A stretch of DNA of 64,000 nucleotides, taken from assembly GCF_030652775.1 (NCBI RefSeq), contig NZ_JAUSPS010000010.1, forward strand, positions 19,280 to 83,279. Reading direction: 5' to 3'. The notes below the pieces were generated by a model. That model was not told the DNA's origin. It ran no database searches and saw nothing but the letters and a program-made list of their open reading frames with translations. The stretch comes from Acetobacterium sp. GTDB taxonomy: Bacteria > Bacillota > Clostridia > Eubacteriales > Eubacteriaceae. Made by a program: the position numbers and the translations under genes. Shown here piece by piece: positions 3,394-32,022 of the stretch. Position 1 is the stretch's first letter. Every line of letters begins with the position of its first letter.

Positions 3394-4020
3394 CTATTGT
3401 ATCGAGTTCATTAACGCATGAAAATACTCCGATTCATGCGTTTTATAAAGCGGATACCAAGCCTCTAATGTTTCTGGCGAAAAGACCGCCAAAGCTTTCA
3501 GAACTTCCACCGTAAATTCCAATGGTGCAACCCCGGTCGCTGTGATTAAGTTTCCATCCGTAACCGCTGGGTCATTTTTGTAATATGCTTCACCTTGATA
3601 ATCCGGACAGACCATTTTGAGATATCCCAGATCATTGCTTGTATGGTATCTGGAATCCAGCAACCCATTCTTGGCAAGTCCCATTGTCGCACCACAGATG
3701 GCCGCCACAATCATGTTTTCTTTAATACCCTGCTCGGCTATATTGATGATCGGTTCGTGGATTGCCTCTAACCAGGTATCTCCGCCGGGTAAAATCAGAG
3801 CATCTGCGCTTTTTAAATCGCACTCGGCCACACTGATATCCGGTAATATTTTCAAACCGCCCATGGTCGTAACTGGTGTCGCATCAACGCCTACGGTTAC
3901 TACTTTGCATGGCGTTATCCCCTTCTTAAAAAATCTGCCGGAATTAAGTTCTGCCGTTAAATATCCAATTTCCCAATCTGCCATGGTATCACAGACATAA
4001 AGATATATCGTTCTAATCAT
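3394..4020 (-). CDS. DJ-1/PfpI family (type 1 glutamine amidotransferase-like) protein
   Basis: ADWE, LILPGG, AAICGA nucleophile elbow, DGNLITA. Confidence 0.9.
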   Translation of the reverse strand: MIRTIYLYVCDTMADWEIGYLTAELNSGRFFKKGITPCKVVTVGVDATPVTTMGGLKILPDISVAECDLKSADALILPGGDTWLEAIHEPIINIAEQGIKENMIVAAICGATMGLAKNGLLDSRYHTSNDLGYLKMVCPDYQGEAYYKNDPAVTDGNLITATGVAPLEFTVEVLKALAVFSPETLEAWYPLYKTHESEYFHALMNSIQ

Positions 4021-29686: not shown

Positions 29687-29702
29687 TTTTATTTGGGGTA
29701 CC

Positions 29703-29826
29703 GAGATTTCATCGGGTTTACCAAAAATATACCCCTGCACGAGGTCTATCTTTTTCCTTTTTTAGATAGTCGTACTCAGCCACTGTTTCAATACCTTCTG
29801 TTAAGATACTTGCTCCTATTTTGGGA
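29703..29826 (-). pseudogene. EAL (c-di-GMP phosphodiesterase) domain C-terminal remnant
   Basis: KIGASILTEGIETVAEYDYLKKEK / +1 frameshift / IDLVQGYIFGKPDEIS matches the EAL EGIET and QGY.FGKP motifs. Confidence 0.75.
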
Positions 29827-29864
29827 TCATTATAAATAAATCCATCCAACGTCTCCTGTTCCTT

Positions 29865-29933
29865 TTAGTCGATATGAATATCACGAATGATCGTCATATC
29901 GACTAAATGACGCGGGGTCGTTTTATTTGTCAC
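29865..29933. repeat. 13-bp perfect inverted repeat abutting a REP-like element
   Basis: TTAGTCGATATGA (29865-29877) / TCATATCGACTAA (29894-29906), then ATGACGCGGGGTCGTTTTATTTGTCAC (29907-29933), which overlaps the amt-GGDEF stop. Confidence 0.65.
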
Positions 29934-31819
29934 ATTGGTTGCTTCACAATCATGTTTCTGCCCTTTTCTTTTGCGCAATAAAGCAGTGAATCCGCCCGGT
30001 TAATCATTTTATTTAAATCCTCTCCTTCGTATTCGACAACGCCCCCGCTAACCGTAATGGTATAATCCTTGTTAAAATCCCAGATCATCTTTTCAATCTT
30101 TTCTCTGATCATATTTGCAAAGATATACGCTGTTGCCAAATCAGTTTTAGGCATAATGACAAGAAATTCTTCGCCCCCATACCGGCCAAAATAGTCTGTT
30201 TTTCTGATGGTATTGCTGACATTCTTGACGATATCAACCAATACCTGATCACCAGCTAAATGTCCGAATTGATCATTGACTTTTTTGAAAAAATCAATAT
30301 CGAACAATAATATTGACAGTTTTTTCTCATAGTTGATGGCAATGCTGATTTCTTTTTCCAAGGCATCGGTTACATTTTTTCTGTTTAAAATTTGTGTCAA
30401 ACCATCCGTCACCGCCATATGATGCAGCGACTGCAAAGCCTCTTCGGCCAGCTCTTCTTTTTCTTTTAAATCATTGACCATACTATTGAAATAATCTGTC
30501 AATTCACCAATTTCAGTTCCGAATTCGACTTCAATTTTTTCTGCATTTTTAAAGTTTTTATGCTCAATGATATTCCGAACCGAATTCGAAAGTTCAAAAA
30601 TACTGGTACTTGCGCCATGCTCGGCAATATTGAGTCCAATTTCTTCATGACTTGGCGATACCCGCATGGGAAAGAATTTATTAATAATCGTCATTAAAAT
30701 AAATGATACGCCAAAGCTCCAAACAAACGCCGCAGTCGCGCCCAGTATTTGAATCATAATTTGATTGGATCTGGTCATCCCAAATTCTAGTAGAAAATTC
30801 TCCTGAATAAAAATTCCGGTAGCAATTGTTCCCCACACTCCGGCAAATCCGTGTACCGGTATTGCACCAACCACATCATCCAGTTTGAGCTTTTCCAATA
30901 GCAGGGTTCCAAAAAAAACAATTAAACCAGCTACAATCCCGATAACCAACGCCCCAACTGCGCTCACATAATAACAACCCGCGGTTATTCCCACCAATCC
31001 GCCAAGAATACCATTGATGATACTTTCCGGTTCGGGAAGTTGATTTTTACTGAATTTCCAACTGACAAACAGACCGGTAAGCCCGCCAAAAGAAGCAGAT
31101 ATCAAGGTATTGGCAATGATGTCGGCAATATTCGTAGTCGCCGCCAGCGTACTGCCGGCATTAAACCCAAACCAGGCGAAAAACAGAATGAAAACACCAA
31201 AGTATGCAAAAACGAGATTGTGTCCTCTTATTTTGTTTGCTTTGCCATCTTTTTCAAACCTGCCCAGTCTTGGGCCAATAATGATCACACCAGAAAGTCC
31301 AACCCAGGCGCCAATCGAGTGAACAACCGTTGATCCGGCAAAATCAAGAAATCCGAGCTGCTGAAGCCAGCCGGCGTTATCCGCATAGAAATAACCACCC
31401 CAGGCCCAATGACCAAAAATTGGATAGATAAATGATGACGTAATAAATGACATTAATAAATAGGTGCTGAATTTCGCTCTTTCGGCAACCGCCCCAGAAT
31501 CGATGGTTGCCGCTGTTCCGGCAAACACGACTTGAAAAAGAAAAAAAGCAGCTTTCCAATCATCTTGTTCAAAATTCACAAAAAAATCACTGATTCCTAC
31601 AATACCATGAAATGATTCGCCAAACATCAGCCCAAAACCAATAAACCAAAAAGCCGCAACGGATAAAATAAAATCCGACATATTCTTAATCGCAACATTG
31701 ATGGAGTTCTTTGCGCGTGTAAGTCCCGTTTCCAAAGCCATAAAACCTGGCTGCATCAGAAATACAATCATCGCCGATATGACAACCCATAAATAATCTG
31801 AAATATCCTTCATCTGCAT
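29930..31819 (-). CDS. amt: Ammonium transporter fused to a HAMP-like linker and GGDEF diguanylate cyclase
   Basis: Amt motifs QPGFMALETG, DFAGSTVVH, WFGFNAGS, DDVVGAIPVH. Then DGLTQILNR, DIDFFKKVNDQFGH, RKTD I-site and GGEEF. Confidence 0.93.
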   Translation of the reverse strand: MQMKDISDYLWVVISAMIVFLMQPGFMALETGLTRAKNSINVAIKNMSDFILSVAAFWFIGFGLMFGESFHGIVGISDFFVNFEQDDWKAAFFLFQVVFAGTAATIDSGAVAERAKFSTYLLMSFITSSFIYPIFGHWAWGGYFYADNAGWLQQLGFLDFAGSTVVHSIGAWVGLSGVIIIGPRLGRFEKDGKANKIRGHNLVFAYFGVFILFFAWFGFNAGSTLAATTNIADIIANTLISASFGGLTGLFVSWKFSKNQLPEPESIINGILGGLVGITAGCYYVSAVGALVIGIVAGLIVFFGTLLLEKLKLDDVVGAIPVHGFAGVWGTIATGIFIQENFLLEFGMTRSNQIMIQILGATAAFVWSFGVSFILMTIINKFFPMRVSPSHEEIGLNIAEHGASTSIFELSNSVRNIIEHKNFKNAEKIEVEFGTEIGELTDYFNSMVNDLKEKEELAEEALQSLHHMAVTDGLTQILNRKNVTDALEKEISIAINYEKKLSILLFDIDFFKKVNDQFGHLAGDQVLVDIVKNVSNTIRKTDYFGRYGGEEFLVIMPKTDLATAYIFANMIREKIEKMIWDFNKDYTITVSGGVVEYEGEDLNKMINRADSLLYCAKEKGRNMIVKQPM

Positions 31820-31909: not shown

Positions 31910-31940
31910 AAAAAAAGCCAACCTCACCAGGTTGACTTTC
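31910..31940 (-). terminator. Intrinsic terminator downstream of padR
   Basis: Minus strand AAAGTCAACC-TGGTGA-GGTTGGCTTTTTTT. Confidence 0.7.
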
Positions 31941-32022
31941 ATTGTCTGATTTCTGTATTTATCCTATTATGTAGTAATCTTAGCAGAATAAAATATATTA
32001 GTCAATATTTCTGCATCGATTA

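Follow-up and report, generated by a model that had tools for sequence, protein, structure and literature searches.

A predicted ammonium-responsive diguanylate cyclase of the ammonium receptor class in Acetobacterium

Within a 64,000-nucleotide stretch of an Acetobacterium sp. genome (contig NZ_JAUSPS010000010.1; hereafter the window), a single gene on the reverse strand encodes an ammonium transporter (Amt) domain joined through a HAMP-like linker to a GGDEF diguanylate cyclase domain. We propose, with a probability of about 0.75, that its product is an ammonium-responsive membrane diguanylate cyclase of the ammonium receptor (AmR) class, working as Sd-Amt1 of Shewanella denitrificans does. 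Sd-Amt1 is an Amt-HAMP-GGDEF ammonium receptor (PDB 8qj3, 8qj4 and 8qpf) in which a pair of NH4+ ions occupies lateral sites, N1 and N2, beneath the twin His; this shifts Glu29, Lys44 and Tyr119 and increases the kcat/KM of the cyclase about tenfold, and the electrogenic ammonium response is mostly charge displacement upon binding rather than transport (Pflüger et al., 2024, PMC11152129). The initial annotation of the window had put the gene forward as an ammonium sensor linking nitrogen status to cyclic di-GMP (c-di-GMP), a proposal that is supported here and that agrees with the experiments on this full-length homologue of the same architecture. Our reading rests on the observed architecture, residue conservation, fold and genomic division of labour, and the protein has the sequence and fold features of the AmR class, i.e., the Amt fold with its selectivity path, the N1/N2 signature, the switch residues, a constricted exit and a fused C-terminal transducer. 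Both the architecture and the mechanism are already published.

The open reading frame (Table 1) runs for 629 codons without interruption, with no internal stop. The gene as first annotated is thus a single intact fusion, and only its start needs revision: the first ATG is not conserved, being GTG, ATA or missing in relatives, whereas the ATG at 31813 (Met3) is invariant among them and has AGGAG 8 nt upstream, and for this reason we consider Met3 the probable true start. The resulting protein of 627 amino acids has the length of the closest homologues. Pfam assigns the N-terminal part to Ammonium_transp (PF00909, E 6.8e-119) and the C-terminal part of the same frame to GGDEF (PF00990, E 5.8e-41), and the NCBIfam model TIGR00836 (amt) scores 409 bits, exceeding its family cutoff. 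The hallmarks named in the initial annotation could all be located. The twin His lie in VVH at residues 165-167 (His167) and PVH at 321-323 (His323), WFGFN occupies residues 216-220, and both residues of the Phe gate align with those of Sd-Amt1, as does the Trp/Ser pair of the vestibule. In the cyclase domain, the GGEEF motif at residues 548-552 is preceded at a distance of 5 residues by the RxxD I-site, R539-K-T-D542. D507, D509, N515, D516, H520, D524, R546, K617 and G620 are invariant across the fused-homologue family; their catalytic roles are presumably those mapped in PleD-type cyclases. Judged by these residues, the GGDEF domain appears to have the active-site motif, the GTP/Mg-binding residues and the I-site of a catalytically active diguanylate cyclase.

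The receptor signature QX6EX15NX2D[F/T]X54-60TX2[S/T] proposed for this class (PMC11152129) matches the protein by regular expression, with Q23, E30, N46, D49, F50, T105 and S108 at the defined positions. The switch residue K45 falls inside this stretch, and Y120 and the exit-constricting N269 follow farther along the protein. A residue-by-residue alignment with Sd-Amt1 covered 17 functional positions, namely the N1/N2 ligands, the access Phe26, the switch residues K45 and Y120, the exit N269, the Trp/Ser pair, the Phe gate and the twin His, and all 17 were identical. The window protein shares with Sd-Amt1, at ~40 % identity, the arrangement of Amt, HAMP-like and GGDEF parts from end to end, the complete N1/N2 signature, the switch Lys and Tyr, the exit Asn, the twin His, the Phe gate and the RxxD and GGEEF motifs. 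None of the 17 positions, nor R539, D542 or GGxEF, varies among 26 fused homologues, whose identities reach down to 43 %.

Over its full length the protein finds its best PDB match in Sd-Amt1, residues 10-624 aligning with residues 9-630 of 8qj3, 8qj4 and 8qpf (E 5.2e-145), and the next match is the Amt-histidine kinase Ks-Amt5 of 'Candidatus Kuenenia stuttgartiensis' (6eu6). We built an AlphaFold2 model from the alignment of the 26 homologues (mean predicted local distance difference test score, pLDDT, 78.4) and compared it with known structures using Foldseek. The OFF and ON structures of Sd-Amt1 (8qj3 and 8qj4) and Ks-Amt5 came out on top, ahead of every transporter, with TM-scores normalised to the target of 0.89-0.90. 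The segment joining the two domains had been described as a HAMP-like or coiled linker; a HAMP-like character is suggested by the predicted two-helix geometry together with weak sequence matches, the one in the window protein falling below the curated threshold. In the window protein, HAMP (PF00672) matches residues 428-452 with E 0.023 and 15.4 bits against a cutoff of 25; 17 of the 26 family members have a match at E<=0.1, the best at 4.9e-4. The model places helices at residues 405-420 and 436-470, the latter running into the GGDEF domain, with a loop at 421-435 between them, a predicted geometry like that described for the HAMP domain and signalling helix of Sd-Amt1. The AS2-to-GGDEF helix is 36 residues long in the window protein, throughout its clade and in Sd-Amt1. 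To about residue 452 the linker is near-identical to that of relatives in which the Amt domain is fused to a methyl-accepting chemotaxis (MCP) signalling domain and which are annotated as containing HAMP, the close ones carrying precomputed PF00672 matches; beyond that point the sequences diverge.

By homology with Sd-Amt1, we infer the following course of signalling. External NH4+ would be selected by the Amt vestibule (Trp/Ser), the Phe gate and the twin His (H167/H323). Asn269 would narrow the exit, so that the ion is kept from the cytoplasm and diverted past Phe26 into a lateral pocket, where two NH4+ may bind, at N1 (E30, N46, T105, S108) and at N2 (N46, D49, T105). Binding would free the E30-K45 salt bridge and flip Y120, and the movement would travel via the Amt C terminus and the HAMP-like two-helix linker to the 36-residue signalling helix. 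Two of the trimer's three GGDEF domains would then pair and convert GTP to c-di-GMP, with the RKTD I-site presumably providing product inhibition. The product would be read by the nine c-di-GMP-I riboswitches of the genome and its few protein receptors, and ammonium uptake would be left to the three amt genes located next to P-II genes. On the same grounds the protein is expected to bind ammonium, to be activated rather than inhibited by it, to perform no net transport and to have a downstream phenotype.

The genome contains four Amt genes, of which three are standalone and each lie next to a P-II gene; the fused copy has no P-II partner. The earlier statement that no glnK is adjacent proved correct, as the six P-II matches of the genome fall on contigs C11, C73, C41 and C80 and none lies in the window. 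S. denitrificans likewise combines the sensor with a canonical amt-glnK pair (PMC11152129), and the glnK-less gene beside separate amt-glnK pairs in the window genome mirrors this arrangement. Outside the window, C11:4617-8467 (-) holds two tandem amt-glnK pairs, and both of their Amt proteins have Tyr at the position of E30 and lack every N1/N2 ligand, which is the transporter pattern. In the second of them the first pore His (H169 in Sd-Amt1) is replaced by Glu, which is unusual for a twin-His site. The third standalone Amt, also next to a P-II gene and outside the window, is encoded at C73:81245-82450 (-) and shares 47 % identity with the fused one. As for c-di-GMP, about 65 GGDEF genes, nine c-di-GMP-I riboswitches and one PilZ protein were counted in the genome.

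The Amt domain of Ks-Amt5 is 44.5 % identical to that of the window protein and has the same N1/N2 ligands, but its output is a histidine kinase instead of GGDEF, and it has Arg, Asn and Thr at the positions of K45, Y120 and N269, which the window protein and Sd-Amt1 have in common. The closest kin of the Amt domain outside the window clade are Amt-HAMP-MCP fusions from Planctomycetota, Spirochaetota, Desulfobacterota and Halalkalibacter, which are 51-59 % identical from the Amt domain to the end of the HAMP linker; they differ in ending in the chemotaxis signalling domain (PF00015), and a literature search found no published characterisation of them. Assimilatory AmtB/GlnK systems (E. coli AmtB, A. 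fulgidus Amt1 and the C11 pairs of this genome) share the Amt fold, the Trp/Ser site and the Phe gate, and all except the second C11 copy share the twin His. In contrast to the window protein, to which they are ~30 % identical, they are standalone with an adjacent P-II gene, have Tyr where it has E30, lack the N1/N2 ligands and carry Thr or Ser at the exit in place of Asn269.

Several observations weigh against our interpretation. Confidence in the model is low at residues 397-408 and 461-469, the joints at which the domains would be coupled, the HAMP assignment stays below threshold by sequence, and the window protein lies outside the lineage of Sd-Amt1 both in the Amt-domain tree and by a topology test (see below). 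The C73 paralogue, next to its P-II gene, shows the complete N1/N2 signature and the Asn of the exit, and plant AMT1 transporters have both as well (PMC11152129), so that transport is compatible with these residues. As that paper states for plant AMT1, the signature is needed for a pure sensor but does not prove one. Some of the competing explanations that follow could hold together with the core claim of an ammonium receptor. The fused protein could be a bifunctional transceptor that conducts ammonium inward and also signals via its cyclase, as proposed for plant AMT1 with the same N1/N2 motif. Every pore residue is intact, the C73 protein shares the N1/N2 residues and the exit Asn yet has a P-II gene as its partner, as a transporter would, and the cluster-2 proteins include proven transporters, with the structure of Sd-Amt1 by itself being unable to exclude transport (PMC11152129). 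We nevertheless consider dual function unlikely: both fused receptors tested, Sd-Amt1 and Ks-Amt5, gave charge displacement and not translocation, the three amt genes beside P-II genes would already serve uptake, and the fused copy has no P-II partner to gate it. The C73 paralogue is a possible transceptor and could serve as an in-genome comparison of transport and sensing.

The sign of the response might also be the reverse, with ammonium switching the cyclase off and c-di-GMP rising under nitrogen limitation. HAMP output polarity can flip with small changes in the linker, and the juxtamembrane segment is 2 residues longer than that of Sd-Amt1, with 77 residues from the end of the Amt domain to GGDEF versus 75 in Sd-Amt1's clade; the protein moreover belongs to a separate lineage, whose Amt-HAMP cassette is common to proteins with MCP outputs. 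However, the AS2-to-GGDEF helix that sets the register has exactly 36 residues in both lineages, and K45 and Y120, on which the switch depends, are the same as in Sd-Amt1, which makes inhibition quite improbable in our view. That the protein is a membrane-anchored cyclase unresponsive to ammonium, with the Amt domain as a mere trimeric anchor or the whole gene as a decaying accessory, could be argued from its patchy occurrence, its variable context among species with a decayed EAL fragment adjoining, and the redundancy suggested by the ~65 GGDEF paralogues. An intact reading frame, and ligand, switch, pore and catalytic residues that are all invariant to 43 % identity in several phyla, would be unexpected without selection on sensing, and we regard such a loss of responsiveness as very improbable. 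The ammonium-responsive cyclase, activated as Sd-Amt1 is, thus remains our preferred reading.

The initial annotation had named the phylogenetic distribution of the fusion as a check, and we found it to be rare and patchy. The closest proteins are those of A. malicum and of an Acetobacterium sp. (both 96 % identity), followed by A. carbinolicum (91 %). Of 27 Acetobacterium species genomes, 9 encode a full-length fusion; none of the 26 genomes from the eight other genera of its family does. When 400 genomes of the class were sampled evenly, a single genus out of 216 had it. Relatives at 73-79 % identity come from Fusibacter paucivorans, a Clostridia metagenome-assembled genome (MAG), Spirochaetia MAGs and two MAGs labelled Planctomycetota; fusion proteins of Oceanispirochaeta and Marispirochaeta follow at ~61-62 %, and proteobacterial Amt-GGDEF proteins at 38-45 %. 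The two MAGs labelled Planctomycetota (L008 and L010), whose Amt-GGDEF proteins are 73-74 % identical, are placed between spirochaete and clostridial sequences in the tree, pointing to either recent cross-phylum transfer or mislabelling. In public databases the closest homologues are annotated as 'ammonium transporter' only, a label that is likely misleading for these fusion proteins.

In the tree of Amt domains, the window clade (13 Amt-GGDEF rows, support 100) is nested within the Amt-HAMP-MCP clade, apart from the clade of Sd-Amt1, and the GGDEF domains of the two proteins do not group either. An approximately unbiased (AU) test, for which the group was defined only after a quick tree had been seen, rejected a single Amt-GGDEF clade (difference in log likelihood 142, p 6.7e-46), and we therefore conclude that the output was swapped independently. 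A careful tree has supported branches that force at least three changes of output. The GGDEF-domain tree fits a separate origin, but with poor support in its deep branches it would not establish one by itself. By these analyses the window protein is a member of the AmR class with the architecture of Sd-Amt1, outside the lineage of Sd-Amt1. Tentatively, and at somewhat less than even odds, we suggest that the Amt-GGDEF proteins of Acetobacterium, Fusibacter and spirochaetes arose, not from the Sd-Amt1 type, but from an Amt-HAMP-MCP ammonium chemoreceptor whose output was exchanged for GGDEF after the HAMP helix with the 36-residue register kept. The Amt-HAMP part would then be a portable ammonium-sensing cassette, plugged into different outputs at least three times and moved between phyla, and in Acetobacterium its expression would also be gated by an undescribed attenuator in the leader, made up of an invariant block and a terminator hairpin.

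Amt-domain ammonium receptors have been characterised in two organisms only, both diderm. The earlier statement that the characterised fusions are Gram-negative or planctomycete is accurate, these being Sd-Amt1 and Ks-Amt5, and a literature search returned no Firmicute or Acetobacterium paper, in line with the earlier remark that no characterised example is known from acetogenic Firmicutes. The host here is a monoderm anaerobic acetogen, in contrast to the denitrifying gammaproteobacterium that harbours Sd-Amt1. A member with every sensing residue intact in such a host extends the AmR class to Bacillota and provides a candidate link from ammonium supply to c-di-GMP-controlled attachment, motility and riboswitch-regulated genes in a genus that is relevant to gas fermentation, bioelectrochemical systems and subsurface communities. 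The recombination of the Amt-HAMP sensor cassette with different outputs, as seen in the tree, bears on the coupling of trimeric sensors to dimeric outputs, a question left open in PMC11152129.

Upstream of the gene, the leader contains a predicted promoter, kept in 5 of 6 aligned Acetobacterium leaders (the window's included), followed ~30 nt past the predicted transcription start by an invariant 16-nt block, GACAATGAAAGTCAAC, and at ~30-60 nt by a hairpin that overlaps it. Across the six genomes 100 % of the alignment cells in the hairpin are paired, compared with 31-72 % in slide controls. At two pairs both bases have changed (U-A to C-G; C-G to U-A), which with six sequences lends modest covariation support to the predicted stem. 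The block occurs once in the genome at <=1 mismatch and does not precede the orthologous genes of Fusibacter and spirochaetes. Rfam gave no match in the whole window at gathering thresholds, and at a permissive E-value the leader returned only chance-level small RNA matches (E 1.6 and 4.9). The hairpin is most likely a terminator that needs conditional read-through; alternatively, it could be a terminator inherited from a former upstream gene. Promoter, block and hairpin travel with the amt-GGDEF gene across Acetobacterium species and may constitute a new attenuator. A leader peptide was considered for the 27-codon frame opened by ATGAAAGTC... and was ruled out by the lack of a ribosome-binding site and a frame-breaking 1-nt deletion in the orthologous locus L088. 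Dual hexaloop hairpins of the ANTAR type were not seen in the ~32-nt A-rich stretch before the terminator, which was inspected by eye only. Two Acetobacterium orthologues of 88 % identity (L089 and L090) have an extra insertion of ~200 nt after the conserved hairpin and before the start codon; the window lacks it.

Table 1. Features of the amt-GGDEF gene and its surroundings, in window coordinates
Feature	Position	Strand	Basis
Sigma-70-type promoter, TTGACT-17-TAAGAT (with TG)	31977..32005	(-)	Promoter scan
Leader element: invariant block GACAATGAAAGTCAAC overlapping a 12-bp hairpin (GAAAGUCAACCU/AGGUUGGCUUUU), then a U-tract	31910..31946	(-)	Leader alignment, minimum free energy fold
Amt-HAMP-GGDEF coding sequence	29930..31819	(-)	Longest open reading frame, 629 aa
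Amt sensor domain, residues 10-404, 11-transmembrane fold	30608..31792	(-)	Pfam PF00909 and Foldseek
N1/N2 ammonium-receptor signature, residues 23-108 (Q23, E30, N46, D49, F50, T105, S108)	31496..31753	(-)	Regular expression
Juxtamembrane helix, HAMP-like linker and signalling helix, residues 405-468	30416..30607	(-)	AlphaFold2, weak Pfam match, relatives
GGDEF diguanylate cyclase domain, residues 469-622	29954..30415	(-)	Pfam PF00990
RKTD I-site, residues 539-542	30194-30205	(-)	Motif position, exactly 5 residues before GGEEF
GGEEF motif, residues 548-552	30164-30178	(-)	Motif position
Perfect 14-bp inverted repeat with 16-nt loop, just past the stop codon	29864..29907	(-)	Read from sequence
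Frameshifted C-terminal EAL remnant, not part of the fusion protein	29687..29846	(-)	Three-frame translation and Pfam

The neighbours of the gene in the window are unrelated to it: genes for a PadR regulator and a MATE pump lie upstream, and downstream follow those for a 4Fe-4S membrane protein and a TetR regulator. Not one of the four is found next to the orthologues, including those with 96 % protein identity, and the flanks vary from one Acetobacterium species to another; the genomic context therefore gives no functional clue. DNA homology among the species is confined to the coding sequence and ~200 nt upstream and ends at the stop codon. At L088 (about 3600-3627), which has no PadR gene, homology to the window upstream of the gene still takes in ~48 nt of the PadR 3' end. 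This points to PadR-amt as the earlier gene order, since disrupted.

Downstream, homology with the other Acetobacterium species ends exactly at the inverted repeat that follows the stop codon. This repeat lacks a U-tract and is unique in the genome, and it is possibly the terminator stem of the gene. The adjoining EAL remnant matches Pfam EAL positions 202-236 of 236 once its frameshift is bridged (E 4.9e-6; 26.5 bits, cutoff 31.3). An ancestral Amt-GGDEF-EAL protein was considered and rejected, as no homologue has an EAL domain and all orthologues end at the same position. Because no homologue carries EAL, it is more likely that a neighbouring EAL (c-di-GMP phosphodiesterase) gene was mostly lost by deletion. 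What is left corresponds to the last ~35-45 residues of a phosphodiesterase domain (TEGIE ... QGYIFGKP).

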